DNA from: a virus
Length of the DNA stretch: 64,000 bases
Direction: 5' to 3' (one strand)
Virus record (IMG/VR): IMGVR_UViG_3300020159_002453
Span: 15,879-79,878 of that record
Made by a program: the position numbers and the translations under genes
The notes under the pieces: model-generated
The model's input: the letters and a program-made list of their open reading frames with translations, nothing else
Databases searched by the model: none
What the model was told of the DNA's origin: nothing
In this document: positions 19,642 to 56,675 of the stretch, piece after piece
How positions within the stretch are numbered: the stretch's first letter is position 1
Layout of the letters: each line of letters starts with the position of its first letter

Positions 19642-19662
19642 ATGTGTATAATAATGTAAAAA

Positions 19663-20343: not shown

Positions 20344-20344
20344 A

Positions 20345-20608: not shown

Positions 20609-20647
20609 ATTTGTGAAGAGTATAAGATTTATTTTTAATAAATCTAC

Positions 20648-20980: not shown

Positions 20981-20989
20981 ACCTCATAC

Positions 20990-21643: not shown

Positions 21644-21646
21644 ATA

Positions 21647-33687: not shown

Positions 33688-34726
33688 CTCAGAAGTCGGT
33701 ATTTTTTCCGATCCACACTACGGTGTACATCGCAATAGTCCGATGTGGCACAAAATTGCTCTGGACCACGCTAAGTGGGCAGCTGAGCAATTTAATCTTA
33801 AAGGTATCAAAGACATTATTATACCTGGAGATATTTTTCACGACCGTAATGATATCGCGGTTAATACACTCCATATTGTTACCGATATTTTTGATATTCT
33901 TAAAAACTTCAACATTATTATTACTGTCGGTAATCACGATGCTTTTTACCGGGACAATTCTACCGTCAATTCTGTTTCTATTTTGCGTGGCTGGTCTAAT
34001 ATTACTGTTGTTGATACTCTCACTATACTGGAAACCCACGGTAAAAAAATAGCTTTATGCCCTTGGGGGCAAGATATTAACGAGGTACCCTCGTGTGATC
34101 TTATTGTGGGTCATTTTGAAATTAATAGTTTTAAAATGAACTCGTATAAGGTATGTACGAATGGTCTTAAATCTACTGACCTTACCAGTCGTGCTAAGTT
34201 AACTATTTCCGGTCACTTCCATCATAAAGAAGAACGCAAATACAAAGATGGTACTATTATGTATGTAGGTTGCCCATACCAGCAAGATTGGGGCGACTAT
34301 GAAACAACTAAAGGTCTTTATATCTTAGATTTAGACACCTTAAAATATGAATTCATTGAAAATAACATATCCCCGCAATACAACAAGATTAGATATTCTG
34401 AAATTGCGAACGGTACACTTAATGCTGAAAAGTTAAAGAAAATTATACCAGGTAATATTATTAAGCTTTACATTGATAAAAAGCTTGAGCCGGATGCAGT
34501 AGATGTACTTGTAAGAAAGCTTGTGTCAGTTAAACCTGTAGAGTTTACTATTGAGTATGATTTTGTAGATACTGTTAACGTAGATAATGAAGCCGCTAAT
34601 AAAAAAGACTTCACAGTAAGCGTAGAAACTTCAATTAATGAATTTATTGATTTATTGGATATTAAGCATAAAGATAAGGTGAAAGAGTATGTTATTGAGT
34701 TATATAATAAATCTAATAAAACATGA
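33674..34726 (+). CDS. gp47: Recombination nuclease gp47 (Mre11/SbcD-like)
   Basis: FSDPHYG, GDIFHDR, VGNHD, GHFEI, SGHFH. Confidence 0.95.
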   Translation: MKIFNSEVGIFSDPHYGVHRNSPMWHKIALDHAKWAAEQFNLKGIKDIIIPGDIFHDRNDIAVNTLHIVTDIFDILKNFNIIITVGNHDAFYRDNSTVNSVSILRGWSNITVVDTLTILETHGKKIALCPWGQDINEVPSCDLIVGHFEINSFKMNSYKVCTNGLKSTDLTSRAKLTISGHFHHKEERKYKDGTIMYVGCPYQQDWGDYETTKGLYILDLDTLKYEFIENNISPQYNKIRYSEIANGTLNAEKLKKIIPGNIIKLYIDKKLEPDAVDVLVRKLVSVKPVEFTIEYDFVDTVNVDNEAANKKDFTVSVETSINEFIDLLDIKHKDKVKEYVIELYNKSNKT

Positions 34727-35556
34727 AAATAGGAGTAGCAATTATTGCCTGCGATAGATTGGAATACACCAAAAAGTGTGTTGAAAGTGTTATTGCAAAT
34801 AAAGGACCAGTCACTGACATAATATTAGTCAATGACGGGGTTAAAATACCTGAGGGGGTATTGCCTACTGAAGTAATGGTAATGGAGAATCGCCCCCCTT
34901 ACCAGTCAGTCGGGGTTGCTAAGAACAACGCTCTAAGAACTCTTTCAAATTGGAATTGTGACCATATGTTTTTAATTGAAAACGATATTATGGTTAAATC
35001 CTCTAATGTGTGGCAGAAGTATATTGATACTGCTAATGCTACCGGTATTACTCATTTAAATTTCGGTTATCACGGGCCTGCTAATCGCACCCCCGACTAT
35101 ACTAAACCTAACCCGCGAACAATTGTAGAATACCCTGTAACTGTAAAAACCGCTTTTCAGACAATTGAATCAGTGAAGGTAGCACTGAACATGCATAGTG
35201 TTGGTGCTTTTTCTTATTATAGTCCTTTGTTTGTTAAGACTGTTGGCTTACACGATGAATACTTTAAGAATGCCTGGGAACATGTTGAATTATGTCAAAG
35301 AGCTGTTAAGCTTGGAATGCTACCGGCATTTTGGTGGTTTCCAGATGTAGAAGGTAGCGATAGCCTGTTACAAGAAGTAGAAGGCTCGATTAAAAACAGT
35401 TCTATTACACATACTGAAAAATGGATTAACAATATGAGAAAAGGGGCCGCTCATTATAAGAAGCTACATGGTTGGGAACCTATTCACACTCCAGATACCC
35501 CACCTAAAGAAGTATTCGATAGACTAAAGACGATTTACAGCAAATACAAAAAGTGA
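34723..35556 (+). CDS. GT2-like glycosyltransferase
   Basis: ILVNDG, VGVAKN, FLIENDI, WEHVE. Confidence 0.8.
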   Translation: MKIGVAIIACDRLEYTKKCVESVIANKGPVTDIILVNDGVKIPEGVLPTEVMVMENRPPYQSVGVAKNNALRTLSNWNCDHMFLIENDIMVKSSNVWQKYIDTANATGITHLNFGYHGPANRTPDYTKPNPRTIVEYPVTVKTAFQTIESVKVALNMHSVGAFSYYSPLFVKTVGLHDEYFKNAWEHVELCQRAVKLGMLPAFWWFPDVEGSDSLLQEVEGSIKNSSITHTEKWINNMRKGAAHYKKLHGWEPIHTPDTPPKEVFDRLKTIYSKYKK

Positions 35557-36368
35557 AAAACCTATATTTAAAAGATAGTTCTTTCGGTCACTGCATTTAT
35601 AGTAACAACCCTACCCCGGCTGTAACATTTAGTAAGCATATAAATTGGGTTAGAGATGGTAAAGGTAAACTTGAAGATACTGTATATACTGATATGCACT
35701 TACAGGAGTGTGAAGGAGGTATCGGTTGGTTGCTTGAACCTCAAGGCATTTACCCACAAGCATATCAATATGTAATGCAGAATGCACATAAGTTTAAAGA
35801 GATCTGGACTCATGATGCATCAATGCTGTATTTGCCTAATGCTAAGTTAGTGCCTATTGGCGGGTGTTGGATAGAGAAACAAGATTACGGGATACATAAA
35901 AAGAGTAAAATGTTTTCTATAATTGCTTCATGGAAGCGAGCTTTGCCTGGCCATAAGTTAAGACACACTATTATTAGTCTAGCGGGTAAACATATTGATG
36001 CTTACGGGCCTGAGTATATACAATTTAAAAAGCACTCAATGAACAAGATTGAAGGTCTAAAAGACTATAGATATCATTTTGTTATTGAGAACTGCAAGAG
36101 AGACTTTTATTTTAGCGAAAAGCTAATTGATAGTCTTATGACTGGTACAATGCCTATATACTGGGGCTGTCCATCTATTGGAAAATACTTTAATACTGAC
36201 GGTTTTATTATATTTGATACACTTGAGGAGTTGAAAGAAAAGCTTAAGCTTTGTACCCCGGAGTATTATGACAGCAAAAAAGAAGCTATTATAGACAACT
36301 TCCAGAGAGCACAGAATTATTTGCTAGCTGAGGATTGGATGGTAGAGAACGGAGTTATTAAACTCTAG
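35553..36368 (+). CDS. GT10 (alpha-1,3-fucosyltransferase-like) glycosyltransferase
   Basis: YRYHFVIEN..YFSEKLID..PIYWG GT10 signature. Confidence 0.88.
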   Translation: MKNLYLKDSSFGHCIYSNNPTPAVTFSKHINWVRDGKGKLEDTVYTDMHLQECEGGIGWLLEPQGIYPQAYQYVMQNAHKFKEIWTHDASMLYLPNAKLVPIGGCWIEKQDYGIHKKSKMFSIIASWKRALPGHKLRHTIISLAGKHIDAYGPEYIQFKKHSMNKIEGLKDYRYHFVIENCKRDFYFSEKLIDSLMTGTMPIYWGCPSIGKYFNTDGFIIFDTLEELKEKLKLCTPEYYDSKKEAIIDNFQRAQNYLLAEDWMVENGVIKL

Positions 36369-37167
36369 TCCAGCTTTCTGGTATTAAGTCAGCCGTGCTC
36401 CAATCTTTATACATTGGACCAAACCAATTTTTCGGCGCAATTACTACCTTTTCAGGATTAGTGTTAAACCAAGCTGACCACCAGCTAAAGGTACTGTTTG
36501 CTATAATGTTGTTTTTACAGCTACTCATTGCATGCATATCAGCAAACGGGTTTTTACTGTTTGAGTACTTAACTTTTTTGTTAACACCAAATGCTTCTTT
36601 GCACCATGCAATATCATCTGAAAACACTAAATAATTTTTACTTGGTACTAACTTAGTAGCATTAAAATAGTATTCCGGAGTCATTAGGGGGTGCCAAGCT
36701 TGCTTTTTTACATAATCTCCACGTCTTACATGTATAGAGGTAGTCTCTTCTGGATCAATACCAGCTTCAATAAAAATCTCATCCGACAAAGCTACAATAG
36801 TTTCTTTAAACTGTAAATGCTCAAGTATGTACTCTCTATTATGGTTAAAGTACTTTTCACTTTGAAAATAACCAGTTAAATCAGTGTTATCCGATATGTT
36901 AAACACATCTTTAGTAAAATGAAATGCGGGGTCCTGGTATTGATTAGTAACACCATCTGACTCTTCTTTAGTAATGTAAGGAGCCTTTACGTTAAATCCC
37001 TGGGACAAGTTGAAATTCATAGCCTGACAGTAGTTATCATAATGTGTCGGGTTATTAGGGATTTTAACAGTATATCCGTTGTCTTTACCTACGGACAATA
37101 GAGTGGAGTACTGAAATAGAGCATTACCCACATTACCATTACGACCTAGCAGTTTATATGTAATCAT
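36358..37167 (-). CDS. GT11 (alpha-1,2-fucosyltransferase-like) glycosyltransferase
   Basis: GNALFQY, GYFQSEKYF, SIHVRRGDY, FSDDIAWC, IIANSTFSWW. Confidence 0.92.
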   Translation of the reverse strand: MITYKLLGRNGNVGNALFQYSTLLSVGKDNGYTVKIPNNPTHYDNYCQAMNFNLSQGFNVKAPYITKEESDGVTNQYQDPAFHFTKDVFNISDNTDLTGYFQSEKYFNHNREYILEHLQFKETIVALSDEIFIEAGIDPEETTSIHVRRGDYVKKQAWHPLMTPEYYFNATKLVPSKNYLVFSDDIAWCKEAFGVNKKVKYSNSKNPFADMHAMSSCKNNIIANSTFSWWSAWFNTNPEKVVIAPKNWFGPMYKDWSTADLIPESWTRV

Positions 37168-37913
37168 TTCCAGTTCCAGCCTTCGACCTCTTTAAGCAGC
37201 TGCTCGTTAGATAGTTCTCCTATACGATGTAACTCTAAGCGATTGGATTCTAAATGAGGATTGTGATTGTAAGAAGCCTCAAGTCTTACATGATTTAAAT
37301 GGTAAAGGGGTCCACTAATACGCGCGAATTCACATCCAAGCTTTTTAAAACGGAAGAATATTTCGTTATCTTCATACCCTAAACCTTTAAAGTTTTCATT
37401 AGCCCCTCCACATTTCCAGAAAGTATTTGTGTCAAAGAATACTGCACCCCCCACTGATCCAGTATGAAAGCAGGTACACTCATTAAGATCTACCATTCCT
37501 GTGTTTTTTGCTTTTTTAATAAGACTATGATACTTTTTAGGTACATCATAAAAATGTCCATCAAACGGGTATACAACCGTAGCTTTACCACTCAAAATTA
37601 CCTCTGTAGCTTTTTTAATTTGATTTGGAGTTAATAAGATATCAGCATCATAGTGGGCTACAACCGGGGTATCAGCAGCTTTTGCAGCTAAGTTTACCCC
37701 GCGTTGTCTGTTAAAAAACTCATTTGTCTCTTTAAAAATATACTTGCAATTATAACGATCTTTAAGTTTAGGGATAGTATCCTGTTCACATATTACAATA
37801 TTGGTGTTTAAGTTGCTTTGGAGGAAATCCATAGTTATGTCCAAGTTGTTTAAACGATCCTGACTATCAACCTTTAAAGCTATCAAAATGGTTAGGTCTT
37901 TTAAATCTATCAT
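37164..37913 (-). CDS. GT7/GT2-like (galactosyltransferase-like) glycosyltransferase
   Basis: FNRQRGVN, YDAD, GGANENFKGLGYEDNE, LYHLNH. Confidence 0.85.
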   Translation of the reverse strand: MIDLKDLTILIALKVDSQDRLNNLDITMDFLQSNLNTNIVICEQDTIPKLKDRYNCKYIFKETNEFFNRQRGVNLAAKAADTPVVAHYDADILLTPNQIKKATEVILSGKATVVYPFDGHFYDVPKKYHSLIKKAKNTGMVDLNECTCFHTGSVGGAVFFDTNTFWKCGGANENFKGLGYEDNEIFFRFKKLGCEFARISGPLYHLNHVRLEASYNHNPHLESNRLELHRIGELSNEQLLKEVEGWNWK

Positions 37914-37986: not shown

Positions 37987-39810
37987 ATGCGTTACATCCA
38001 TTTTAAGCGGGTTAGTATTGTTAACTTTTTATCGGTAGGCAAGAAAGCTGTTGAGATTAATTTTAAACCAGGTCTTAACATTATCACAGGTAAAAACTAT
38101 GATAAGGCAGACCGTGCAAACGGCGTGGGTAAATCTACTATCGCAGATGCAGTGCATTTTGCTCTTTACGGTAGTACCATTCGAGATGTTAAGAAAGAAA
38201 ATATTGTTAACGACCAAGCACCAGACAGTCTGTGTGAAGTAGAGCTAGAGTTTAATTTTGTACTAAACGACCGCACAAGCGAGTGTAAGATTATTCGTAC
38301 TCTTAATCCTACTAAGTGCTTATTTTTTATTAACGGAGAAGATGTAACCCGCTCTGGGGTACCTCAAACAACCGAATTTATTACAGAGACTATTAAGACT
38401 TCATCTGAAGTGTTTCAGAATAGTGTGGTAATGACAATTAATAATACTATACCGTTTATGGCTCAAAAGAAGGTCGAAAAACGCAAATTTATTGAAGGCA
38501 TTCTTGGGCTAGAAGTCTTTGGGGATATGTTGCTGTTAGCTCGTTCTCAATTTAACGAATCTAAACGCAATCTTGATATTGAATCCACCAAGCACGATGA
38601 GACTGCTCGTTCTTTAATCGAAGCTACCAAGCAAAGAGATAATTATGAGGTTTCTAAAAAAACTCGTCTTGACTCTCTTTTACAACGTCAAAGCAACAAC
38701 ACACAAGAATTAGCGATTTTAAATCAAAAGATCGGTAAACTTGAGTCTGTTGATACAGAAGCTCAAAACAAAATTGAAGAGGATTTAAAGGTACTTAAAG
38801 AAGCAGAAAGAGCTCACTCTAAGAAGACCGATGCTATTGTTAAACTTATTACTGAAGCCCAAGCCCATGTTAAGTTTAACACTGACCGTATTAAAAAGCT
38901 CAAAAAGGTTGATAGTAAGTGTCTGCATTGCGGTAAAGATCTTGCAGAGGCCGCTAACACTCAGTACGAAAAAGATAAAGATGAATGTGGAAAAGAGGTG
39001 TTTAAGTATACAGAAGTGCTTAATAGAGAAAATCCTCGTTTAGCTGAAGCGCGTAAAAATGTAGAAAAACTAGAAAAGTCTATCCCTGATTTGGAACGCA
39101 AATTACACGAGTTTGCACTCCGCAAAAAGGAAGTAGAAAGTCTTAACTCTCGGGTTCTTCAAATAGAAAGCTGGCAGCAATCTCTTTTGTCTGATATCGA
39201 AGAGATTAACAAAGACTCTAACAATTTTCAAGAAATTATTGACAAAGTGTTAGAACGTCAAAAGTCAATTAAAGACGGTATTGAAGCATTACAGGTACGT
39301 CTCGATATTATCGAGAGTGCAAAGTTTATTACCTCTGAAGAAGGGGTTAAATCGTTTATTGTTAAGAAGATTATACAAGTACTCAATACAAGACTTGAAC
39401 ATTATTTACGTAGACTGGAAGGTAATAGTATAGTTAAATTTAATGAGTTTTTTGAAGAAACTATTACCAATGAACGTGGTAAAGAGTGTAGCTATTTTAA
39501 CTTCTCCGGGGCGGAGCGTAAATCTATAGATCTTGCAATGTTATTTACCTTTCAAGATATTCGCCGCGCACAAGCAGATGTTTCTATTAACTTGAGCATG
39601 TTTGATGAGTTGTTCGATTCATCTTTAGACGATAAAGGTATTGAGTTAGTACTTGATATTCTTAAAGAAAGGGTAGATATGTATAATGAAGCAATTTATA
39701 TTATTTCTCATCGTAATGAGAGTAAGAAGTATTGCAGCGGTGGAGAAATTATCTACCTCGAAAAGAAAAACGGTATAACAACCAGAACAACTAATTATGA
39801 CATTTCCTAA
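37987..39810 (+). CDS. gp46: Recombination ATPase gp46 (Rad50/SbcC-like)
   Basis: NFLSVG, NGVGKST, CLHCG Zn hook, FSGAE, FDELFDSSLD, ISH. Confidence 0.96.
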   Translation: MRYIHFKRVSIVNFLSVGKKAVEINFKPGLNIITGKNYDKADRANGVGKSTIADAVHFALYGSTIRDVKKENIVNDQAPDSLCEVELEFNFVLNDRTSECKIIRTLNPTKCLFFINGEDVTRSGVPQTTEFITETIKTSSEVFQNSVVMTINNTIPFMAQKKVEKRKFIEGILGLEVFGDMLLLARSQFNESKRNLDIESTKHDETARSLIEATKQRDNYEVSKKTRLDSLLQRQSNNTQELAILNQKIGKLESVDTEAQNKIEEDLKVLKEAERAHSKKTDAIVKLITEAQAHVKFNTDRIKKLKKVDSKCLHCGKDLAEAANTQYEKDKDECGKEVFKYTEVLNRENPRLAEARKNVEKLEKSIPDLERKLHEFALRKKEVESLNSRVLQIESWQQSLLSDIEEINKDSNNFQEIIDKVLERQKSIKDGIEALQVRLDIIESAKFITSEEGVKSFIVKKIIQVLNTRLEHYLRRLEGNSIVKFNEFFEETITNERGKECSYFNFSGAERKSIDLAMLFTFQDIRRAQADVSINLSMFDELFDSSLDDKGIELVLDILKERVDMYNEAIYIISHRNESKKYCSGGEIIYLEKKNGITTRTTNYDIS

Positions 39811-40984
39811 CAACAACGGCGTTATTGGCGCCCCACAAGTTCCATTCGGTGCACCTATGGTAGGTAACCCTATGGTGCAATCTGCCCCTGTGCAGGTACC
39901 TATCTCTATGAATCCAATGATAAGTGGGTTAAAAAGAGCAGTTAGCTTTGCAGCTGATCATCAAGGGTGTGGTTTTTGGAGAATGCACTGGCCGGAATCC
40001 GTTATTAATGGCCAACAATTGGGGGTTATTAGTAATAATAATTTTATGCTTTTGCAGGAAAACTTTTATGAAGGTATTGAAAGTATAAGAATCCAGCGTC
40101 AAGTTACCCCTACCCAATTAAGTTTCGTTAAATTTTTAAAGGCAGTCTCAAAAAAGAAAAATAATTTTAAGATTTATTACGAGATTGATGATGTTATTTT
40201 TCCTGAAGATATTCCTGTTTACAATAAAGCTAGAGAAGCGTTTACTGACCCCTCTATTATTGCTTCTGCAATAGAAATTATGAAATTGTGTGATGGTATT
40301 ACCACCCCTACCGACTACATGTCAAAGTATTACGAGGAAAAGACCGGGGTTAAAGGTATAACTCTACCCAATTATATGCCAAAGTTTTGGATGGATCGCT
40401 TTTATAATAAAGCTAAAATTGTAGAAAATTTTGATTTTAATAAACGCCGACCACGAGTTGGTTACATTGGTAGTCCTACCCATTTTAACGTAGGGGAGGT
40501 AGCTGGGGCAAAAGACGATTTTGCTGATATTTCCAACATAATTATTAAGACAGTTAAGAACTTTAAGTGGGTAATTATGGGTGGTTGCCCACGGGAACTT
40601 GCACCTTATGTAAGAAGCGGGGATATTGAATATTACCCTTGGGTTCGTATTTGGGATTATCCTACTGCTTTTAATAATCTCAATATTAACGTCGCGATTG
40701 CACCATTACAGAATAATAGATTCAATCTAGCTAAAGCGCCCATCAAATATCTTGAAGCAGGCGCGCTTGGTATACCTTGTGTATGTCAAGATCTTGCTCC
40801 TTATAATACCAACCCAGTTGCTCCACTTAGATTTAATACTGCTGATGAAATGATAGAGATTATTAAAAAAGTTACCGGGGATCGTCGATATTACCTCAAT
40901 GAATCTGATAAAGCACGTAAAGTTGCTACTGGATACTGGCTTGAAGATCATATTAAGGAATTTACTAATTTGTATTTTGGTTAA
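39797..40984 (+). CDS. GT-B (GT4-like) glycosyltransferase
   Basis: GCGFWRM, YEIDD, GSPTH, IAPLQNNRFNLAKAPIKYLE. Confidence 0.85.
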   Translation: MTFPNNNGVIGAPQVPFGAPMVGNPMVQSAPVQVPISMNPMISGLKRAVSFAADHQGCGFWRMHWPESVINGQQLGVISNNNFMLLQENFYEGIESIRIQRQVTPTQLSFVKFLKAVSKKKNNFKIYYEIDDVIFPEDIPVYNKAREAFTDPSIIASAIEIMKLCDGITTPTDYMSKYYEEKTGVKGITLPNYMPKFWMDRFYNKAKIVENFDFNKRRPRVGYIGSPTHFNVGEVAGAKDDFADISNIIIKTVKNFKWVIMGGCPRELAPYVRSGDIEYYPWVRIWDYPTAFNNLNINVAIAPLQNNRFNLAKAPIKYLEAGALGIPCVCQDLAPYNTNPVAPLRFNTADEMIEIIKKVTGDRRYYLNESDKARKVATGYWLEDHIKEFTNLYFG

Positions 40985-41028: not shown

Positions 41029-43593
41029 GTGTATCGTAACATTTATTATAGTTCTAGGGATAGTACTTGCCATCTTTTTAAGTGGGACGAGCATGGCAAC
41101 CGGGTAATTGAAAGAAGCCCTTACTTACCGTACTTTTATATTGAGACTAATGCTGAGACGGCTGATGCACTATCTATCTTTAATACTAAGTTAAAGAAGA
41201 AAGTATTTCGTAATAACTACGAACGCAATAAGTCTGCTCAAGATGGTGCTATCAAACGGCTCTATCACAATATTCAGGTCGAGCAGCAATTCTTAATTGA
41301 GCAATACAAAGACGTTTACGATAAGCCTGAATTTTCTAATAATCCGCTTAAAGTATGCTTTCTTGATATCGAAGTGTACTCCCCGGATGAGTTCCCTCAA
41401 GCTAAGGATGCTAAGCACCCAATTAACTTAATTACCGTTTACGATACGCTTTCGGAAACATTTTACTCGTTTGGTGCTAAGCCCTATACCCCCACTCGTA
41501 AGAACGTAGTGTATACTGAGTGTACAAGTGAGCACGATCTATTAGAAAAGTTCTTAGAGTTTTGGGAGAAAGACTACTACCCTGATATTCTTTCAGGTTG
41601 GAATACAGATTTTTTCGATTTTCCTTACCTCATTAACCGCATTAATAATCTTTTAGGAGAAGATGCTGCAAAACGGCTTTCGCCGGTACAGAGTCTGTGG
41701 TGCCGTAAAGGTATTTTTGTTAAAGGTCAAGAGCTCGATCGTTGGTATATTCACGGTATTTCTGCAATGGATTACATGGAAGTGTATAAGGGCTTTGCAC
41801 GTGGTTTGCTTGAATCTTACGCACTTAACTTTGTCGCACAACATGAGCTTGGAGAAGGTAAGCTAGCTATTAACGCCACTAACTTAGCCGATCTTTCTGA
41901 GTCTGACTGGAACAATTTTGTTGAGTATAATATTCAGGACGTCGATCTACTTGTGAGAATGGAGAAGAAACTCCAGTTCTTTAAGATTATTCGAATGCTT
42001 GCTTATAAAGGGTTGACTAGCTTTGAAGCTGCTCTTGGTAAAGTATCTATTGTTACTGGGTGTGTTGCATTAGAAGCCTATAAGCATGGTATGGTTATAC
42101 CTACCTTTGTGGAAGGACCTACCCGGGAAGCTATTGAGGGTGGATACGTTAGAGACCCTGAAAGAGGTCTTCAAACCTCTATTGTAAGTTATGACGCTAA
42201 TTCACTATACCCTAATACTATTATTACCCTGAATATATCCCCGGAGACAAAGGTCGGTAAGATAGTTGCTAAGGATGATGAGAGTGTTACGTTACGCTTA
42301 GCTAATAATAAGGATTTCAAGCTTACTAACGAGAAGTTTATTCAGTTTGTTCAATCCGAAAAGCTTACGATATCCAAAGCTAACGTACTTTACACACAAA
42401 AGAAGAAAGGTGTGGTGCCCTCGCTTATCGATGGTCTTTATAGTGAGCGGGTTGTTAATAAGAATCAATACGTGGATTTAAAAAAGAAACTCAGTAAGTT
42501 AGATATAGCCACTGATGAATATCGAATCTGCAAAGCGAACATGGAAAGAGCTGACACTATTCAGCATGTTATCAAGATTTTGCTTAACTCTATATACGGT
42601 GTTTTTGCTAATAAGTTTAGTCCTATTTGCGATAGCGATCATGCTGGTAGTATTACTCTCACGGGTCAAGCTGTTGTTAAGCAGGCTAGTGAAATACTGG
42701 ATCAATACGCACGAGAAGTCCTTAGCTACCAGGGTAAGTCCCTCACAATCTACAACGATACTGATAGTACTCATATTACTATACAGCCTCTCCTGGACAA
42801 GAAGAATTTAAACATCTTTACAGACGGTAAAGTTAATAAAGAGGGTCTTAAGTTTATTGATGATGAACTCGGGGTCTATCTCAACGCTAAAATTAAAGAA
42901 TGGGCTAAGGACAAGTTAAACTCAATTGACCCGCGGTATTATTTTAAACGGGAATCAATTTGTGATGTTGCAGTTTACCTTGAAAAGAAACGTTACATTA
43001 TCCACGTTATTAATGATGAAGGGGCAGATGTAAGCAAGTTTAAATATGTCGGGGTTGAGATTGCCCGTTCTACCACACCTAAGAAAGCTAAAGAGCTTAT
43101 TAAAAAGGTAATTGAAAGTAGTTTATTAGTACAAGATCAGATTAAAGCTAATACTATTTATCGAGACGTGTATGATACGTTTAAAAAGCTTTCGATTGAT
43201 GATATTGCCATTAGAGGTGGGTTGAGCGATATTGAAAAACATCAAGTACGTGCAGATGGGTTTAAAATTGCTAAAGGCACCCCGAATCATGTCAAAGGCG
43301 CTATTTGGTATAATCAATTGCTTAAGCACCGTAACTTAGAAACAAAATACGAACGCATTACTTCAGGCGGTAAAGTTAAGAAGATTTATATTGCGCCGAA
43401 CAAGTATAACATCGACACACTTTGCTTCCCAGTAAGTTTTCCACCAGAATTTAAGGACTTTGAAGTTGATTACGAAGAGATGTTCGATACAATTATTAAA
43501 CCACCAGTAATTGCAGTTTATACCGCTCTCAACTGGCGTTTACCTGAAGTTAACAACCAAGCACAAACCGATCTATTTGACCTATTTACATAA
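41029..43593 (+). CDS. gp43: Family B DNA polymerase gp43
   Basis: Exo motifs FLDIE, GWNTDFFD, YNIQD. Pol motifs YDANSLYP, KILLNSIYG, YNDTDS, KKRY. Confidence 0.97.
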   Translation: MYRNIYYSSRDSTCHLFKWDEHGNRVIERSPYLPYFYIETNAETADALSIFNTKLKKKVFRNNYERNKSAQDGAIKRLYHNIQVEQQFLIEQYKDVYDKPEFSNNPLKVCFLDIEVYSPDEFPQAKDAKHPINLITVYDTLSETFYSFGAKPYTPTRKNVVYTECTSEHDLLEKFLEFWEKDYYPDILSGWNTDFFDFPYLINRINNLLGEDAAKRLSPVQSLWCRKGIFVKGQELDRWYIHGISAMDYMEVYKGFARGLLESYALNFVAQHELGEGKLAINATNLADLSESDWNNFVEYNIQDVDLLVRMEKKLQFFKIIRMLAYKGLTSFEAALGKVSIVTGCVALEAYKHGMVIPTFVEGPTREAIEGGYVRDPERGLQTSIVSYDANSLYPNTIITLNISPETKVGKIVAKDDESVTLRLANNKDFKLTNEKFIQFVQSEKLTISKANVLYTQKKKGVVPSLIDGLYSERVVNKNQYVDLKKKLSKLDIATDEYRICKANMERADTIQHVIKILLNSIYGVFANKFSPICDSDHAGSITLTGQAVVKQASEILDQYAREVLSYQGKSLTIYNDTDSTHITIQPLLDKKNLNIFTDGKVNKEGLKFIDDELGVYLNAKIKEWAKDKLNSIDPRYYFKRESICDVAVYLEKKRYIIHVINDEGADVSKFKYVGVEIARSTTPKKAKELIKKVIESSLLVQDQIKANTIYRDVYDTFKKLSIDDIAIRGGLSDIEKHQVRADGFKIAKGTPNHVKGAIWYNQLLKHRNLETKYERITSGGKVKKIYIAPNKYNIDTLCFPVSFPPEFKDFEVDYEEMFDTIIKPPVIAVYTALNWRLPEVNNQAQTDLFDLFT

Positions 43594-44343
43594 ATAGCAT
43601 TTCCAGCCTCTCCAGTTATTTTTTTTATATTTACAACTTTTTTTAGCTATTTCTCTCATCGTCCACACCGGCAAGTTATGTTTCTTACAAAATGTTTCAG
43701 ATTCTCCGATAATATCGTATTTTTCTCCAGCGGGATCAATAAAAAGCCAATGCTTAGCTCTTGAATTATATTTCCCTTTAACTGAAAGCACCCCCTCTGC
43801 AAATAAGCGCTTTCTAGTGAGACTTATTTGGCTCCCATTGTTATCGTGCGGAACCATTAATCCTTTTTTTAACTTACTATTTTTTGCGTAATAAAGTACT
43901 TTCATACGCTTTGAATGCTGCTTACGTCGCTCGAAGGTCCAAGCTTTTTTTTGCGCCTCCTGTCTTTTTTGCATAACTTCTAGAGAAGAAGTACGACCAC
44001 CCTTTTCGATTATATTTGTTAATGGACCATTATTTTTAATAACTTGACCTATTTCAGATATTAACTTTGCTTCAAGTGCGATAGATCTATCGTGAGTTAG
44101 TCCTTTCTCTACAAACACTATATAATCTTTTAAGTTAAATGTTTTTAAGTTATTAAGTACTGTTTGTTTTAACTTATTATTACCCCCGCTACCTTTCCAA
44201 ATATGTCTATATGCACGACTTCCGGTACCTTTACCCACATAAAAGGGTTCGTATTTAAACGAAGCTGAATCATAGTTAAAGCTTCCAGGCTTTAAAGGAT
44301 TAGTATAAACATACACATAAAAGGTTGATTTAACATAGTTCAT
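43582..44343 (-). CDS. GIY-YIG homing endonuclease (antisense)
   Basis: FYVYVY..PFYVGKG..R..H..LEAKLI..GPLTN. Confidence 0.85.
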   Translation of the reverse strand: MNYVKSTFYVYVYTNPLKPGSFNYDSASFKYEPFYVGKGTGSRAYRHIWKGSGGNNKLKQTVLNNLKTFNLKDYIVFVEKGLTHDRSIALEAKLISEIGQVIKNNGPLTNIIEKGGRTSSLEVMQKRQEAQKKAWTFERRKQHSKRMKVLYYAKNSKLKKGLMVPHDNNGSQISLTRKRLFAEGVLSVKGKYNSRAKHWLFIDPAGEKYDIIGESETFCKKHNLPVWTMREIAKKSCKYKKNNWRGWKCYLCK

Positions 44344-44374
44344 ATATATAATTACTAAACTAGTAACTATATTT

Positions 44375-45190
44375 ATGATTAAAATATCTCACGAATCACC
44401 TTTAAGCATGCTCGAAATGTCTCGTACGTATAATGATTATGATTATGCCCTCACACATTTGTTCGAGATTTACCCGCAGTATTATAAGTTTTTTCAAGAT
44501 AGTCTTGAACAAGGTAGATGCGTATTATTAGATTGCTCAACATTTGAGCTTGGTACTGCTTTTGATTCGGAACGATACGCATATTGGATTAACAAACTTT
44601 TACCCACCGAATACATTATTCCAGATGTGCTAGAGGATTGTAATGGTACGATTAAATCTGCTATGGACTGGAATTTTAGACTAGATTGGAATAACGTACC
44701 TCACACACAGAGTAGAATGATTGGGGTAGTGCAGGGTAAAAATTACGGGGAGCTGGTTAAATGTTATACCCATATGGATCAAGTAATGAATGTAGATAAG
44801 CTCGCTATTTCATTTGACTACTCTTATTACCGAGAAGTGTTTCCTCATCCTAACAAGTGGGTATCGTTTATGATGGGCCGAGTGATGACTCTTACTCGCT
44901 TAATGAACGATGGTGTTATTAATAAAGGTAAGCCTCACCATCTTCTTGGTTGCGCACACCCTAGAGAGTTCAGCTTTTATCAAGGACCAGAGTTTAGCTG
45001 GATTGACTCTTTGGATACCTCTTCACCTATAGTGCATGGTATCAAGAAGATCGCATACTCTGATAAGATCGGTATTTGGAATAAAGAGAGTACTAAACTG
45101 GTTGATCTACTTGATTCGGTACCAGATGCTGCTCAAGAGAAATGTATTGCAGACAACCTTGCTGCTTTCCGTAGCTACGTGAATGGATGA
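44375..45190 (+). CDS. dpdA: TGT-fold guanine transglycosylase (DpdA-like, probably DpdA3-type)
   Basis: TGT motifs in order: LLDCSTFE, IIPDVL, GVVQG, HHLLG, SLDTSS. No C-terminal Zn site. Context is que genes and the DNA polymerase. Confidence 0.75.
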   Translation: MIKISHESPLSMLEMSRTYNDYDYALTHLFEIYPQYYKFFQDSLEQGRCVLLDCSTFELGTAFDSERYAYWINKLLPTEYIIPDVLEDCNGTIKSAMDWNFRLDWNNVPHTQSRMIGVVQGKNYGELVKCYTHMDQVMNVDKLAISFDYSYYREVFPHPNKWVSFMMGRVMTLTRLMNDGVINKGKPHHLLGCAHPREFSFYQGPEFSWIDSLDTSSPIVHGIKKIAYSDKIGIWNKESTKLVDLLDSVPDAAQEKCIADNLAAFRSYVNG

Positions 45191-45422
45191 ATTAACTGAT
45201 ATTGAGGCTATTACACATAATGTGTCAATAGCTTACCCACACTTGCTTCGAGACGGGGTAACTGTAAAGGATTATTACTTTATTGATTGCCAGAAAAATG
45301 AAGTACTTCCAGTAACAGAATTTAAAGCTGTAAAGGATTACATAAAAAGTGCTGAGATCAAAGACTTTGCTATGGTAATTTCTTTTAGTAATAATATAAT
45401 AGGTTACCGCTTAAATGTATGA
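45183..45422 (+). CDS. Hypothetical protein inside the modification cassette
   Basis: 79 aa, overlaps both neighbours. Confidence 0.65.
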   Translation: MDELTDIEAITHNVSIAYPHLLRDGVTVKDYYFIDCQKNEVLPVTEFKAVKDYIKSAEIKDFAMVISFSNNIIGYRLNV

Positions 45423-46009
45423 AAAGAAGAAGCACATGGGGAGTATTATTTTCGCAATCTGGTTCAGAGATTTTAGAAGTCTCTAAACATCTTAACTGTG
45501 TGCCTGATGTTATTGTAACTAATAAGCCGGTTGAGGATATACATAAGATTAACCCAGAATTACTTGCAATAGCATTTGAAAAGTTTATCTTTTTACCTAA
45601 AAAACCCACTGTGGAAGAGTATGTTACTGCTTTAAAGCATACTGGCTTTGTTACACTACACGGATTTTTAAGAGTGTTACCCCCGGAAATTTGTTTCCGG
45701 TACAATATTTATAATGGTCATCCTGGTTTAATAACTAAGTATCCGGAGTTAAAAGGTAAAGACCCTCAAGCTAAGGTGTGGGATTCTAATGTTAATTATA
45801 GATACCATGGGCATGTTATACATAAAGTAGTTGCTGAAGTGGATGCCGGGGAAGTAACAGCATCAGCATACTTTATGAGTGAAGACATTAAAAAAGAGTT
45901 TGGTAGTTTAGATAACTACATTAAGCACTTACACCGGGTTTCAGTTAGAAATTGGGTAGCCTTTTTGAAGAAAAAAGATATACTCAACGCATCAATTTAT
46001 GGACAATAA
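45419..46009 (+). CDS. PurN-like formyltransferase (predicted preQ1 formyltransferase, DpdN-like)
   Basis: FSQSGS, LHGFLRVL, YNGHPG, HKVVAEVDAG (N/H/D catalytic residues). Confidence 0.85.
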   Translation: MKRRSTWGVLFSQSGSEILEVSKHLNCVPDVIVTNKPVEDIHKINPELLAIAFEKFIFLPKKPTVEEYVTALKHTGFVTLHGFLRVLPPEICFRYNIYNGHPGLITKYPELKGKDPQAKVWDSNVNYRYHGHVIHKVVAEVDAGEVTASAYFMSEDIKKEFGSLDNYIKHLHRVSVRNWVAFLKKKDILNASIYGQ

Positions 46010-46571
46010 CTATAAAGTAGTAATTTGTGGAGCACATTCACAAGGAAAAACTACTCTGGTAAATAAGCTAAAAGAAAATGTCGAGCTTACGCACGACTTT
46101 AAGTTTTCTTTTAGGACCAATCTTACTAGAGACTTAAGCAAACTATTGCCTATTAACGAAGCAGGAGATTCTGTTTCGCAGTATTTAATTATGGCTCGCC
46201 ATCTAGAATTTGCTTTGACTCCAGGGCGTTGGATTATGGATCGGGGTGCCTTGGATGGAGCTGCTTATAGCCGCTACTTCTATGATGAGAATAAAGTGAG
46301 TAAGAACATTATGGATGCAATTGATGAGGTATATGAACAGTGTGTACCTTATTACAATAAAGTGTTTTACATCGCACCTGAGCTACCTCTAGTAGAAGAT
46401 GGAGAACGTAGTGTAAATAAAGAATTCTTTGATGGGGTTGTAAAGCAATTTGATTTTTACACGAGACATTTTAGTGTTAGTAATAAAGTAGTATTTTTAA
46501 CTGGTTCTGTATCAGAACGTGCAAATACTGTGATTAACGCAATTAGAACCGATTTCAACAATGAGCTATAA
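45999..46571 (+). CDS. P-loop nucleotide kinase-like protein (AAA_28)
   Basis: GAHSQGKTT, MDRGALDGAAY, EDGER. Confidence 0.8.
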   Translation: MDNNYKVVICGAHSQGKTTLVNKLKENVELTHDFKFSFRTNLTRDLSKLLPINEAGDSVSQYLIMARHLEFALTPGRWIMDRGALDGAAYSRYFYDENKVSKNIMDAIDEVYEQCVPYYNKVFYIAPELPLVEDGERSVNKEFFDGVVKQFDFYTRHFSVSNKVVFLTGSVSERANTVINAIRTDFNNEL

Positions 46572-47478
46572 TACAAATAATATCGATAAAGTACTCGGAC
46601 AGAGAGTTGATTCTCCGTCTACGTATTCCCCTGACATCCTTGTACGTGAAGAACGTCAACGTAATCGCACGCATCTTGACTTGCAAAATGAATCCCTTCC
46701 TTTTGTCGGTTATGATATCTGGAACGGTTATGAATGTAGTGCAGTAACAGATGCCGGTCTACCAGTGTCTTTTGTTGCTAAAGTAGTTTATGCTGCTACT
46801 AACCCATACATTGTAGAGTCTAAGTCAATGAAGCTTTACTGGAACGGGTTTAACATGCAACCATCCGGTAAGACCCCTAAAGAAGTTCTTAAGAACGTTA
46901 AAGCTACTGCCGAAAAAGATCTTTCTGCATTGCTTGAGACGCCGGTTAAGGTAGAGTTTTACACTCAAAAATTAGAGGGGGATTACTTAAAAGAAAATGA
47001 GTGGTTTAATAGTTACGGTGGCTGGGACGTTCTTGAAGAAATTCCTGAAGCAAAGAAAATGAAATTTACTGTATTTAACGAGACCGCTGATTTGTTAAAG
47101 TTAGACGGAAAAGTTGATATAGGTTGGGTTGAGGAGCGCTATATGAGTACCCTTCTTCGTTCTAACTGCAAAATTACTAAGCAGCCAGACTCTGGGGATA
47201 TTTTTATCTATTATAAAGGTTCTAAAGCAGTAACAGAGCGCTCTCTATTAGAGTGGATTGTCTCGTTCCGTAATGAATGTCACTTCCACGAGGAGATAGT
47301 TGAGTGTGCGTTCAAACGATTATATGATTTAATAACCCCTGATGAGTTACTAGTAACAGCTTTTTATGCACGTCGTGGTGGTTGGGATATCGTACCCACA
47401 CGTGCTACCCACAAGCATCTTTTAGATAAAAATCTTATTAACGCTAAAAAACCATACTTTAAGTTCCCTAGACAGTAA
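46561..47478 (+). CDS. queF: NADPH-dependent preQ0 reductase, two-domain type
   Basis: DIWNGYE, VESKSMKLYWN, LRSNCKITKQPD, FHEEIVE, YARRGG. Confidence 0.95.
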   Translation: MSYNTNNIDKVLGQRVDSPSTYSPDILVREERQRNRTHLDLQNESLPFVGYDIWNGYECSAVTDAGLPVSFVAKVVYAATNPYIVESKSMKLYWNGFNMQPSGKTPKEVLKNVKATAEKDLSALLETPVKVEFYTQKLEGDYLKENEWFNSYGGWDVLEEIPEAKKMKFTVFNETADLLKLDGKVDIGWVEERYMSTLLRSNCKITKQPDSGDIFIYYKGSKAVTERSLLEWIVSFRNECHFHEEIVECAFKRLYDLITPDELLVTAFYARRGGWDIVPTRATHKHLLDKNLINAKKPYFKFPRQ

Positions 47479-47479
47479 T

Positions 47480-48166
47480 TCAATTTAGATATTCTACAAA
47501 CCACCCGAAACTACAACCCCGGGTGGTTTTTTTTTGGTTTTTTAAAATATAACGCATAATACTATATTCAAGTTTATGTTCGTTTACAAATTTTTTAAAA
47601 GCACCTTCACAAATATATGTTTTACCTTTTGGGTCAGTAAATAGATATTTTTTAGCTCCAGGGTTATTGATACCTTGTCTGTTTTTAGAAAGCATATTTT
47701 TATATTCAACAGATCGCTTTATACCTGTCATAGTTTTTGATATCTTTTGACGTGTTTCTAAAGAACGAACTTTACCGGCATTGCCTTTAGCAATTGCTTT
47801 ACGGTATTCTTCCCCAAACCCGTTATTTTCTAACCCACCACTATTTTTATTAGTTAATGGTCCGTCCCTATTATCCGTTCTACCTATTTTTTTGATAAGT
47901 TCGTTTTCCTGTATAAGTGCATCTCTTTCAGATAACTCACAATATACTTTTCTACTAACTATACTGTACTCACTATTTTTAATTTTATTTATTTTTGCGA
48001 TTTTATGTTTATTGTACTTCATATTGCACTCACATGTATGAGCTTTGTGTCTATTACCACAACCTTTACCAACATAAAACGGTTCGTATTCGAATTCAAC
48101 ATCTTTATATTGGTATTTTCCAGGCTTACGGCTATCCAATAATACATATACATAAAACTTATTCAT
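47480..48166 (-). CDS. GIY-YIG homing endonuclease with NUMOD3-type motif (antisense)
   Basis: FYVYVL..PFYVGKG..R..H..ENELI..GPLTN, ETRQKISK. Start MNKFY at 48166. Confidence 0.87.
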   Translation of the reverse strand: MNKFYVYVLLDSRKPGKYQYKDVEFEYEPFYVGKGCGNRHKAHTCECNMKYNKHKIAKINKIKNSEYSIVSRKVYCELSERDALIQENELIKKIGRTDNRDGPLTNKNSGGLENNGFGEEYRKAIAKGNAGKVRSLETRQKISKTMTGIKRSVEYKNMLSKNRQGINNPGAKKYLFTDPKGKTYICEGAFKKFVNEHKLEYSIMRYILKNQKKTTRGCSFGWFVEYLN

Positions 48167-48242
48167 AACAATACTTATCATTTTCATGAAGACAACCCCT
48201 TATTTTAGTTGAATTTTACAAAAACTATATTAATATAACACT

Positions 48243-48593
48243 ATGGACTCAAAAATCATCGTATTCCTCGATAATATTCAACGCACAATTGTTGCAACTC
48301 TTGTTAAGCAAGACAACGATACCATTACTATTACTAAACCAGCTATTCTTAATGTGGCTCCAACCAACGAAAAGAAACTTCAAGTACAACTCTACCCTCT
48401 TATGTTTAGAGAGTTTCTTAAAGACCGAGACGTGTTTCCGTCCTGGACTTATGCTAAGCAATCTGTCGTAGTTGCTAATGGCTGTGAACTTGAAGCAAAT
48501 TTGGTTGCCCAATACGTAGAGATGTTTAAAGCGATTAAGAACGAGCCAGCTCCTACGATCAAGCTGTTTGACGCTGACGAAGACACCAAGTAA
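48243..48593 (+). CDS. Hypothetical protein
   Basis: 116 aa. Promoter TTGAAT-N16-TAATAT. Confidence 0.75.
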   Translation: MDSKIIVFLDNIQRTIVATLVKQDNDTITITKPAILNVAPTNEKKLQVQLYPLMFREFLKDRDVFPSWTYAKQSVVVANGCELEANLVAQYVEMFKAIKNEPAPTIKLFDADEDTK

Positions 48594-51173: not shown

Positions 51174-52091
51174 GTGATCGCTAAGAACATATACGTTTTT
51201 ACAGATATAGATTTAGACGGTGCAACCAGTTTATTAGTACTACATTGGGCATTAAACGCCAAGCCTGGGGATATAAAATTCACCCCGGTTACTGTTTCCA
51301 ATTTTAGAAAAGAGTATTTAAAGTGGCTGGAAAGCGACAGCATCAGCAATTACGACAACGTAGTGTTTTTAGATTTAGATGTCAGTAATCATATTGATCT
51401 CATCGATAATAAGAAGTCTCTTGTAATCGACCACCATTCAACACATGTACGGGCATTATCGGGTTACAATCAAGCTGATGTTAGCCATGTAGTAGAGACA
51501 ACCTCTTGTGCAAAGTTAATGTATGTCGCATATAAAGACTCTTTAAAATTATCTGATAAGCAAAAATATCTTGTCGCATTAGCTAATGATTATGATTGTT
51601 ATCAACTTAAATTAGCTGAGACATACGATCTAAATTGCGCATTCAGTAACACCCAGCGCACACTCGAGAATACTCGCACTCATAAATTTGTTGAAAGATT
51701 CTATAACGGCTTTGATGAGTTGAATACTCAAGAGAAAAATATCGTTAAAGAGTATAAGACCGGTAGAGATGCTCTTATTAACAGTCTACAAGTGTTTTCC
51801 GGTAACGTAAGCATTAGCAAACAAAATATATTAGTTACTGGTACTACCGGCACCAAATATACTAATGATGTTTGCGATTATCTTTTAAAGAAATACAATT
51901 CTGACATAGTATTTTTTGTTAATACAAGTAGTACTCATGTTTCGTTTAGAAAAAAGAAAGAGTGTACTATAGATATGTCAAAGCTAGCCACCAAGCTCTG
52001 TGAAGGTGGTGGTCATGAATATGCTGCTGGTGGTAAGATTACAGACGCGTTTATGGAATTTGTAAAACAATTAACCCCGGTAAGCCAATAA
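51174..52091 (+). CDS. DHH-family phosphoesterase
   Basis: DIDLDG, FLD, IDHH, GGGH..AAG. Confidence 0.9.
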   Translation: MIAKNIYVFTDIDLDGATSLLVLHWALNAKPGDIKFTPVTVSNFRKEYLKWLESDSISNYDNVVFLDLDVSNHIDLIDNKKSLVIDHHSTHVRALSGYNQADVSHVVETTSCAKLMYVAYKDSLKLSDKQKYLVALANDYDCYQLKLAETYDLNCAFSNTQRTLENTRTHKFVERFYNGFDELNTQEKNIVKEYKTGRDALINSLQVFSGNVSISKQNILVTGTTGTKYTNDVCDYLLKKYNSDIVFFVNTSSTHVSFRKKKECTIDMSKLATKLCEGGGHEYAAGGKITDAFMEFVKQLTPVSQ

Positions 52092-55319: not shown

Positions 55320-55642
55320 TGTCTAATAAGATTACAACTCAGAGTTACTTCGTTAAAAGACTTAAAGACTCCGGTTATATCGTCTATAAGATATTTGATG
55401 AGTATAGTGAAGCAGATCCTCGTAGTTGGACGGTAATGATCGATCCTGGTCATGCGTCTATCTTTTGTACCTGTTACGTTAATCACGAAGGTATGTTCGG
55501 GGAAACCTTTTTTGAATTTTATGATGGGGGACAGTATATTCCTGAGAAGTTTAAGTTGAAAACTGACTCGATCGAGGTTATAATATCGTACCTCTTCAAA
55601 TATGGAATCAATAACAAATCAGACAACTACAGTAGCAGATAA
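55319..55642 (+). CDS. Hypothetical protein
   Basis: 107 aa, coupled to gp45. Confidence 0.7.
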   Translation: MSNKITTQSYFVKRLKDSGYIVYKIFDEYSEADPRSWTVMIDPGHASIFCTCYVNHEGMFGETFFEFYDGGQYIPEKFKLKTDSIEVIISYLFKYGINNKSDNYSSR

Positions 55643-56675
55643 AAATTTGACATTTAAATTTATGAATAATTCTAAACCATACGATTGGCTCGGAGAAGAC
55701 GTGGAGGGTAAACAGCCTTTATTTGATGCTGTTAACCACAAGTATATGGAGTCAGATCGTAACTACGACACTAACCTTAAGCCTGATAATGCTTATATTG
55801 CTACTTTGCCCGATTTGCAGAACGGCCCTTCATCTCTTATTCAAGGTGCAAATGTTGCTATTCAACAAGTAGGTATTCACAACTTTAAGCTCCCGCTTAA
55901 ATGGACTCGTCCAGATGGTACTATTATTGAACTTGAAACAGCTGTAACCGGTACTGTATCTCTTGATGCCGATAAGAAGGGTATCAATATGTCTCGTATC
56001 ATTCGTTCATTCTATGAGCATAAAGATAACGTATTTGATGCTAACTACATTGAAGACGTATTAAAGCTCTATAAGAAGAACCTCGGCACTTTTGATGCTA
56101 AGATCATTCTTAAGATCTCTTACCCTATTATTCAAAAGAGTCTTCGTTCCGGTAACGAGGGGTATCAATACTACAATATCGCTATTGAATGTAACCTTAA
56201 CCAGCAAGGTGTGTTTGACAAGATTATTCACTTTGACTTTGTATATTCTTCAGCCTGTCCCTGCTCTTTTGAACTAGGAGAACATGCCCGTAAGTACCGT
56301 AATAAAGCGGTTGTATCTCACTCGCAGCGTTCTACAGCCCGTATTTCAATAAAGTATACTGACCACATTTGGTTTGAAGAAATTCAGGCAATGTGTCTTA
56401 ATGCCCTTAAGACTGAAACTCAAGTCATGGTCAAAAGAGAAGACGAGCAAGCGTTTGCTGAACTTAACGGGGCATACTTGAAGTTTGTTGAAGACGCAAC
56501 CCGTCTACTTTATAATGAGCTTGATAAAGATAGTCGAATTATTGACTTTAAGATTGTGTGCTCTCACTTAGAATCTCTTCACTCTCACGACGCGATTGGT
56601 TGCATTGTTAAAGGGGTTATTGATGGATTTACTGCGACCGTTTCTGAGGCTGAGCTCCGTAGCTTAGTGCGTTAA
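55602..56675 (+). CDS. folE2: GTP cyclohydrolase I type B
   Basis: LPDLQ, QQVGI, KGINMSR, SACPCS, HSQRS, VKREDEQ, FVED, ESLHSHDA. Confidence 0.95.
   Translation: MESITNQTTTVADKNLTFKFMNNSKPYDWLGEDVEGKQPLFDAVNHKYMESDRNYDTNLKPDNAYIATLPDLQNGPSSLIQGANVAIQQVGIHNFKLPLKWTRPDGTIIELETAVTGTVSLDADKKGINMSRIIRSFYEHKDNVFDANYIEDVLKLYKKNLGTFDAKIILKISYPIIQKSLRSGNEGYQYYNIAIECNLNQQGVFDKIIHFDFVYSSACPCSFELGEHARKYRNKAVVSHSQRSTARISIKYTDHIWFEEIQAMCLNALKTETQVMVKREDEQAFAELNGAYLKFVEDATRLLYNELDKDSRIIDFKIVCSHLESLHSHDAIGCIVKGVIDGFTATVSEAELRSLVR

Follow-up and report, generated by a model that had tools for sequence, protein, structure and literature searches.

Whether a modified guanine that replaces the canonical base is exchanged into finished DNA or is built beforehand as a free nucleotide is the question raised by a gene cassette in IMG/VR virus record IMGVR_UViG_3300020159_002453. 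We analyzed a stretch of 64,000 nucleotides of this record (positions 15,879 to 79,878), here called the window, with coordinates counted from its first letter. The source contig is an 80-kb fragment (37% complete according to CheckV; ~37% G+C) of an uncultured T4-like phage, with T4-like genes for UvsY, UvsW, gp46/47-like proteins, gp43, UvsX, gp41, gp32, and the clamp loader. Judged by sequence, genes in the window make up a complete DpdA3/DpdN-type system for fdPreQ1, a new member of a published system. An initial annotation, made from the sequence alone, proposed that the modified G is made at the nucleotide level and incorporated by the polymerase, and the comparisons described below incline us, by a little, to the same view: this system would build modified G before replication, as a free nucleotide.

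The genes central to this question lie together on the plus strand.

44325-44352, plus strand: sigma-70-like promoter, TTGATT-16-TATAAT, 22 nt before the DpdA3 start (10 of 12 positions; consensus match only).
44375-45190, plus strand: DpdA3-type 7-deazaguanine transglycosylase, 271 aa (51.5% identical to DpdA3 of phage immuto; tRNA-guanine transglycosylase [TGT] fold).
45183-45422, plus strand: orf79, a conserved 79-aa open reading frame (ORF) with 39 to 80% identical copies in the same place in relatives.
45419-46009, plus strand: DpdN, a PurN-like formyltransferase and predicted N-formylase of the preQ1 moiety (PF00551, 28.1 bits; cut-off, 26.1).
45999-46571, plus strand: Kin1, a predicted AAA_28 nucleoside/nucleotide kinase (PF13521, 6.5e-13).
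46561-47478, plus strand: bimodular QueF, preQ0-to-preQ1 reductase (PF14819, 8e-25; PF14489, 1e-17).

All five genes overlap their neighbors (DpdA3/orf79 by 8 nt, orf79/DpdN by 4 nt, DpdN/Kin1 by 11 nt, and Kin1/QueF by 11 nt) and stand as an operon behind a single promoter-like site, which was the best sigma-70-like site within 43400-48400. The initial annotation had described a kinase gene coupled between the formyltransferase and queF, and the overlaps of Kin1 with both partners do make translational coupling plausible. No Pfam or PHROG match was found for orf79, and a megablast search of the phage collection with the cassette found no near-identical DNA. The gene order (DpdA3, small ORF, DpdN, AAA_28 kinase, QueF) is that of the Flavobacterium phage immuto, to whose proteins those of the window are 51.5% (DpdA3), 49% (DpdN), 33% (kinase), and 40% (QueF) identical.

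The DpdA3 subfamily was named by Cui, Hutinet et al. (PMC10516641). By full-length tblastn matches to DpdA3 of immuto (1e-82) and of CP220 (42% identity; 6e-47), the 271-aa window protein is a member of this subfamily. Other sequence searches were uninformative: there was no Pfam match, a profile search against PDB sequences returned noise, and hhalign against E. coli Tgt gave a probability of 5.5%, with only the VVQG and HLLG motifs lining up. For the identity of DpdA3 as a TGT fold, fold comparison alone is informative, and it is made on a predicted structure. The AlphaFold2 (AF2) model (predicted local distance difference test [pLDDT] score of 89) is an eight-stranded (beta/alpha)8 barrel with nothing added, as the initial annotation had said in calling the transglycosylase a bare barrel of ~270 aa without an extra domain. 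The top 50 Foldseek matches were all TGTs (best E value, 1.5e-7), and comparison with Z. mobilis TGT by VIA gave a Z score of 17.5 and a root mean square deviation of 3.2 Å over 229 residues. The invariant residues of DpdA3 are D53, D84, Q120-G121, H189-LLGC193, and D214. Of these, D53, D84, and D214 lie at or just past the ends of barrel strands 3, 4, and 8 and would, we infer from the model, be the equivalents of TGT D102, D156, and D280. The TGT zinc motif CxCxxC...H is absent, since only two cysteines are invariant.

Kin1 looks like an enzyme for small molecules. Its AF2 model (pLDDT of 89.6) matched the folds of thymidylate kinase (TMPK), the ribosylnicotinamide kinase domain of NadR (NadR-RNK), and deoxynucleoside kinase (dNK), all at E values of about 2e-7, and its profile matched PDB entries in the order NadR-RNK (5.6e-6), dNK (3e-5), TMPK (2e-4), and deoxyguanosine kinase (3e-3). 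The Walker A motif (GxxxxGKT), R44, Q61, D81, and R137 in the lid region are invariant, and R82 is nearly so. In the alignments, Q61 falls on the Gln of a deoxynucleoside kinase, which reads the base in such enzymes, and D81-R82 falls on the DRS motif of that kinase and on the DR of thymidylate kinase. On the strength of the model and the profile, Kin1 has the fold of a small-molecule (nucleoside or nucleotide) kinase.

To place this kinase in the context of the DpdA3 family, we surveyed its neighborhoods. The family comprises 3220 representatives at 50% identity with E values of <=1e-3 (416 with E values of <=1e-30) and 392 loci in IMG/VR. Among the best 80 of these 392 loci, 58 were nonredundant and extended 2 kb past DpdA3, and in all 58 DpdN, Kin1, and QueF were kept in the same order after DpdA3. 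Some of the 58 loci belong to non-T4, immuto-like backbones that lack PolB, and there the identity of Kin1 falls to 37 to 38%. At greater distances, a small Walker-A kinase-like gene adjoined DpdA3 in every one of the seven DpdA3 lineages of the phage collection, which comprise that of this window and the following.

immuto: AAA_28 kinase beside DpdA3.
CP220: AAA_28 kinase downstream of DpdA3 and HD-AAA_33 fusion upstream.
CC_R7: gene order QueC, DpdA3, AAA_28 kinase, polymerase.
phiST: AAA_18 kinase, CGPG_00066, beside DpdA3.
Chryseobacterium phage MA9V-3: AAA_18/33 kinase beside DpdA3.
Bacillus phage BSTP12 and Weizmannia phage Youna2 (one lineage): third P-loop family beside DpdA3.

The flanking kinases fall into three unrelated sequence families (AAA_28, AAA_18/33, and the BSTP12 type). 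By comparison, six DpdA1/DpdA2 controls (9g, Iggy, BcepGomr, Dp-1, Calamitous, and ZHS) had no Walker-A gene among the neighbors tested; 7/7 lineages against 0/6 controls corresponds to a Fisher value of ~6e-4, for lineages that were few and hand-chosen. Linkage of the kinase to dpdA in relatives, a check proposed in the initial annotation, was thus observed both within close relatives and across lineages. Five further, distant IMG/VR loci had a kinase within 1.5 kb of the dpdA gene in three cases and at 2.8 kb in one (L143); around the very distant DpdA-like gene of the fifth, L145, there was none within 17 kb. The partnership of kinase and DpdA3 and the mechanism that it implies were not found in the literature searched: in PMC10516641, CGPG_00066 is treated as unrelated and the word kinase is never used. 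The comparative evidence favors a small-molecule route, in that a nucleotide-kinase fold appears to have been recruited three times independently.

Gene fusions point in the same direction. Two of the distant IMG/VR loci encode a single protein that joins an AAA_18-type kinase to a DpdL-like T-fold domain with 35 to 37% identity to DpdL of phiST (L142:2530-3483 and L143:1-762). A phiST-type DpdA3 follows this gene immediately in L142 and after 2.8 kb in L143. This fusion links the kinase to an enzyme of the deazaguanine pathway. Fusions of DpdA3 were looked for in 3 "longer" matches and in longer forms among the top 150 representatives, and these included DpdA3-QueF (P0223 and P0225) and DpdA3-DpdN (P0248 and P0358) fusions, as well as one DpdA3 interrupted by a LAGLIDADG/intein element (P0224); a fusion of DpdA3 to a kinase was not among the forms checked.

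DpdN, a single PurN-like domain, can be aligned to E. coli PurN over its whole length and retains the Asn-His-Asp triad. Its invariant N-terminal loop, SQ[ST]GSE, aligned with the PurN loop SGNGSN, which we take to bind the 5'-phosphate of glycinamide ribonucleotide (GAR). Met-tRNA formyltransferase uses an extra domain for its polymer substrate, and DpdN has no such domain. In both GAR and dPreQ1-5'-phosphate, the primary amine lies four to five bonds from C1' of the 5'-phosphoribosyl group, so a PurN-like enzyme suits a nucleotide substrate; by this analogy, DpdN would be well suited to act on a nucleotide.

The remaining genes for the base, together with a second kinase, are found elsewhere in the window.

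55602-56675, plus strand: FolE2-type GTP cyclohydrolase I (PF02649, 3.5e-66).
27741-28187, minus strand: QueD (PTPS; PF01242, 2.2e-16).
26877-27686, minus strand: QueE-like radical-SAM enzyme (weak PF13353 match).
26641-26868, minus strand: orf75, between QueE and Kin2 (in 19 of 26 relatives).
25961-26641, minus strand: Kin2, an AAA_28 kinase paralogous to Kin1 (PF13521, 1.2e-7; 28% identical to Kin1).
25233-25934, minus strand: orf233, directly after Kin2 (in 25 of 26 relatives; 30 to 45% identical).
21647-22366, minus strand: QueC (PF06508, 3e-60).

With FolE2, QueD, QueE, QueC, and QueF all in the window, the preQ0/preQ1 pathway is co-encoded with DpdA3. By tblastn, the QueE-like protein matched immuto and immuto-like loci (22 to 28%) where their QueE lies, and the order QueD-QueE-(orf75)-Kin2-orf233...QueC was kept in 26/26 relatives whose sequence reaches the flanking genes. 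No family match was found for orf75; orf233 gave no Pfam or PHROG lead and only sub-threshold matches in an Atlas search. The initial annotation had placed a second kinase downstream of queE, which is correct in the direction of transcription and for the AAA_28 family, with the correction that the gene is on the minus strand. Two kinases, Kin1 and its paralogue, are thus present in the window, as CP220 likewise has two kinase domains, whereas the immuto lineage has a single AAA_28 kinase. QueC is followed by a stand-alone class II glutamine amidotransferase, which is kept beside QueC in relatives; genes for a glycosyltransferase and a DUF366 protein come next (19060-22366, minus strand). Glycosyltransferase genes are also interspersed with replication genes (19663-20343, 34723-37913, and 39797-40984), and four of them lie between the gp47-like and gp46-like genes.

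The route that we propose begins with FolE2, QueD, QueE, QueC, and QueF, established families that would make the free base preQ1 from GTP. DpdA3 would then put the 7-deazaguanine base in place of guanine on a free deoxyguanosine nucleotide or nucleoside, for which dGMP released by degradation of host DNA is the simplest donor; DpdN would formylate the nucleotide so made, which carries a 5'-phosphate, at its aminomethyl group; Kin1 and Kin2 would raise the product towards the di- or triphosphate, with host nucleoside diphosphate kinase finishing the task; and the phage polymerase would incorporate the product instead of dGTP. This order of steps, with exchange on dGMP followed by formylation and phosphorylation, was already set out in the initial annotation, and we only infer it. 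There would be an even chance, in our estimate, that DpdA3 is the first TGT-fold base exchanger to act on a free deoxyguanosine nucleotide and that, with its kinase or kinases, it feeds a 7-deazaguanine deoxynucleoside triphosphate (dNTP) to the polymerase. As for the grounds weighed for a prereplicative interpretation, the linkage and fold of the kinase, the DpdL fusion, and the PurN-like loop speak for it; the deoxyribosyltransferase-like gene, the polymerase, its motif C, and an enzyme for removing dGTP, all treated next, do not.

41029-43593, plus strand: PolB, a gp43-like family-B DNA polymerase (PF00136, 3e-21; PF03104, 2.4e-18).
43582-44343, minus strand: GIY-YIG homing-endonuclease-like gene between PolB and the cassette (weak PF22945 match).
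47480-48187, minus strand: second GIY-YIG homing-endonuclease gene, which closes the cassette (PF22945, 1.1e-12).
60199-60735, plus strand: nucleoside deoxyribosyltransferase (NDT)/DNPH1-like protein (PF05014, 38.1 bits; cut-off, 28.8).

Adjacency of the cassette to gp43 and the motif C of that polymerase, YNDTDS (aa 574 to 579), had been read as hints of incorporation. PolB does lie upstream, but a GIY-YIG gene intervenes and there is no direct contact; this gene is missing in most relatives, because the PolB match there runs up to the DpdA3 start. The two GIY-YIG homing-endonuclease-like genes, both on the minus strand, bracket the deazaguanine cassette. Neither hint survived comparison. Adjacency was rejected as evidence, being common to the DNA-acting DpdA1 phages 9g, Iggy, and BcepGomr (polymerase/clamp genes), and motif C was rejected as well, since it varies among relatives that have this cassette: YGDTDS occurred 49 times and YNDTDS 23 times in six-frame translations of a set of retrieved loci, which were mostly such relatives and included redundant entries.

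The NDT-like gene, to which the initial annotation had assigned an early promoter, is a genuine PF05014 member, but the promoter (a 9/12 match) is no better than chance, as shuffled versions of the region contain more such matches than the region itself. In a weak alignment to L. leichmannii NDT (E values of 0.03 to 0.06), a Glu of the window protein falls at the ELGYA segment, which in that enzyme carries the catalytic Glu. The gene had no match in immuto, CP220, phiST, or a 96%-complete immuto-like contig, was present in 1/5 relative contigs, and has close relatives only within the T4-like clade. From these sequence comparisons it appears to be lineage specific and outside the conserved DpdA3 core, and it does not support a nucleotide-level route as had been proposed. 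In Edwardsiella phage ZHS, a gene annotated as a nucleoside 2-deoxyribosyltransferase (L099:4218-4628) lies three genes from a DpdA1/2-type transglycosylase, so deazaguanine clusters of other DpdA groups can also have an NDT-like gene nearby.

An enzyme that removes the canonical nucleotide (dGTP or dGMP), as would also be anticipated for such a route, was not found in this contig. Neither this contig (37% complete) nor four relatives (40 to 65% complete) yielded a MazG, PRA-PH, MazG-like, or HD gene when hydrolases of immuto, phiST, and CP220 were used as BLAST queries, ORFs of unknown function were compared with PHROGs, and four Pfam families were searched. Evidence for a dGTP exclusion step is accordingly lacking in this lineage, possibly just because the genomes are incomplete; the DpdA3 clusters of phiST, immuto, and CP220 each have a MazG/PRA-PH or HD hydrolase alongside. 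Judged by sequence family, the NDT/DNPH1-like gene and a DHH gene are candidate removers of canonical nucleotides in this contig. The latter, a DHH/DHHA1 phosphoesterase gene at 51174-52091 (plus strand) between the gp41 helicase and gp32 genes, is a candidate nucleotide phosphatase.

Complete replacement of G is what the measured DpdA3 phages have in common: all three had 100% of G replaced, by fdPreQ1 in immuto and with replacement likewise complete in CP220 and phiST, and the ADG nucleoside has been detected in CP220-infected cells (PMC10516641). CP220 (Campylobacter, dADG) and phiST (Cellulophaga, dDG) resemble this phage in having a DpdA3 barrel of ~260 aa beside a small P-loop kinase but differ from it in their bases, ADG and DG, and in having neither DpdN nor QueF; the phiST kinase is of another family (AAA_18), phiST adds a MazG-like gene, and CP220 adds an HD-kinase fusion. 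Differences from immuto include the backbone (T4-like with a family-B polymerase here, a family-A polymerase there), FolE2 here in place of FolE, the extra paralogue Kin2, and the two homing-endonuclease genes that flank the cassette; no PRA-PH/MazG or phosphoribosyltransferase genes of the immuto type were found in the 80 kb of this phage. Bacterial DpdA/DpdB and phage DpdA1/DpdA2 (9g, Iggy, and Rosebush-type) have the TGT fold and the preQ0 pathway in common with the window, but these transglycosylases are longer than DpdA3 (317 aa in 9g), and their partner, where present, is a ParB-like ATPase and not a nucleotide kinase. These systems act on DNA and modify G partially, at 0.1 to 30% (PMC10516641).

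These properties invite comparison with base replacements made before replication. T4 produces 5-hydroxymethylcytosine (hmC) by means of gp56, gp42, and gp1, and Z-genome phages use MazZ and DatZ. The logic of hmC and Z genomes would match that proposed here in its mononucleotide-modifying enzyme, phage kinase, and complete replacement. An NTP hydrolase such as those systems have is present in phiST, immuto, and CP220, and no canonical-dNTP hydrolase was identified in this phage; moreover, the modifier here would be a base-exchanging TGT-fold barrel, unprecedented at the nucleotide level. For the Z genome, PurZ and the phosphorylation of dZMP before incorporation are cited in PMC12783734.

Several points weigh against a route through free nucleotides. 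Our evidence is comparative throughout, and to our knowledge every characterized TGT or DpdA enzyme acts on a polymer, be it RNA or DNA. L143 and L145 have no immediately adjacent kinase, polymerase genes also adjoin the DNA-acting DpdA1, and the isoelectric point, which we dropped as a proxy for DNA binding, fails to separate the DpdA3 sequences (4.7 to 6.1) from DpdA1 of 9g (5.6). The published DpdA3 model is itself postreplicative (PMC10516641) and was cited as such again in December 2025 (PMC12783734). In that model, G-DNA is made first and DpdA3 acts on the finished polymer, replacing each of its guanines; the P-loop neighbor would be an ATP-using accessory, analogous to DpdB, or a recycler of products, and DpdN would formylate dPreQ1 in DNA. 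Glucosylation in T4 illustrates that complete modification after replication is possible, and the failure to find a dGTP-clearing enzyme in this contig or its four incomplete relatives would also be expected. An accessory role for the neighbor has a precedent in bacterial DpdA, which needs the ParB-like ATPase partner DpdB (PMC10164549). The partner of DpdA3, however, has a thymidylate/deoxynucleoside-kinase fold with acceptor-site motifs, not a ParB or DNA-motor fold, and its position is filled by three nonorthologous families, one of which is found fused to DpdL. The ParB-like proteins with which DNA-level DpdA2 and bacterial DpdA pair were not found here: there was no ParB_N (PF02195) gene in the contig of the window or in four relatives, one of them 96% complete and several of them fragments. 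MazG or HD hydrolases adjoin the cluster in phiST, immuto, and CP220, and coexpression of DpdA3 with pathway genes in E. coli yielded no modified DNA (PMC10516641). On balance, we consider exchange in finished DNA unlikely, though by no means negligible.

ParB-like genes do accompany other DpdA types in phages. In Mycobacterium phage Calamitous, DpdA2 directly follows a gene with a ParB-like nuclease domain (L098:1-1829), mirroring bacterial DpdA-DpdB, and the same pair of annotations occurs in Fusobacterium phage phiFN37.

Two other accounts concern the kinases themselves. They could be housekeeping enzymes, either dNMP kinases of the T4 gp1 type or ribosylnicotinamide kinases of NAD salvage, located beside DpdA3 merely as early nucleotide metabolism genes. 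T4-like phages need a dNMP kinase, the characterized AAA_28 member is the ribosylnicotinamide kinase domain of NadR, and several homologues are labeled "nicotinamide riboside kinase" by JGI. Yet synteny in 58/58 loci, a kinase beside DpdA3 in all seven lineages and in none of the controls, the recurrence of the partnership in unrelated sipho- and myovirus backbones, the fusion to DpdL, and the embedding of both Kin1 and Kin2 in deazaguanine gene blocks are hard to square with mere colocation, and we judge it improbable. We attach a slightly lower probability to a hybrid or nucleoside route, in which a modified deoxynucleoside would be made either by the NDT-like enzyme or by DpdA3 with deoxyguanosine as its substrate, Kin1 and Kin2 would serve as nucleoside kinase and NMP kinase, and DpdA3 may also clear residual G in DNA. 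Such a division of labor would account for the two paralogous kinases here and the two kinase domains in CP220, for the likeness of Kin1 to the nucleoside kinases NadR-RNK and dNK, and for the Glu weakly aligned at the ELGYA segment of the NDT-like protein. It sits poorly with the single AAA_28 kinase of the immuto lineage and with the absence of the NDT-like gene from immuto, CP220, phiST, and the 96%-complete immuto-like contig.

Apart from its mechanism, this locus is an unremarkable addition to the published fdPreQ1 system. Its wider meaning lies in the literature having credited complete G replacement to a DNA transglycosylase whose activity was never demonstrated. If DpdA3 and its kinase do act on free nucleotides, this would explain the 100% replacement of G, and the failed reconstitution in E. 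coli would be explained by the kinase having been left out. The published postreplicative model would then be wrong for the DpdA3 subfamily, and an enzymatic route to 7-deaza-dGTP analogues would be available. The large DpdA3 family would mark a prereplicative "fifth-base" pathway comparable to those of the hmC and Z genomes.

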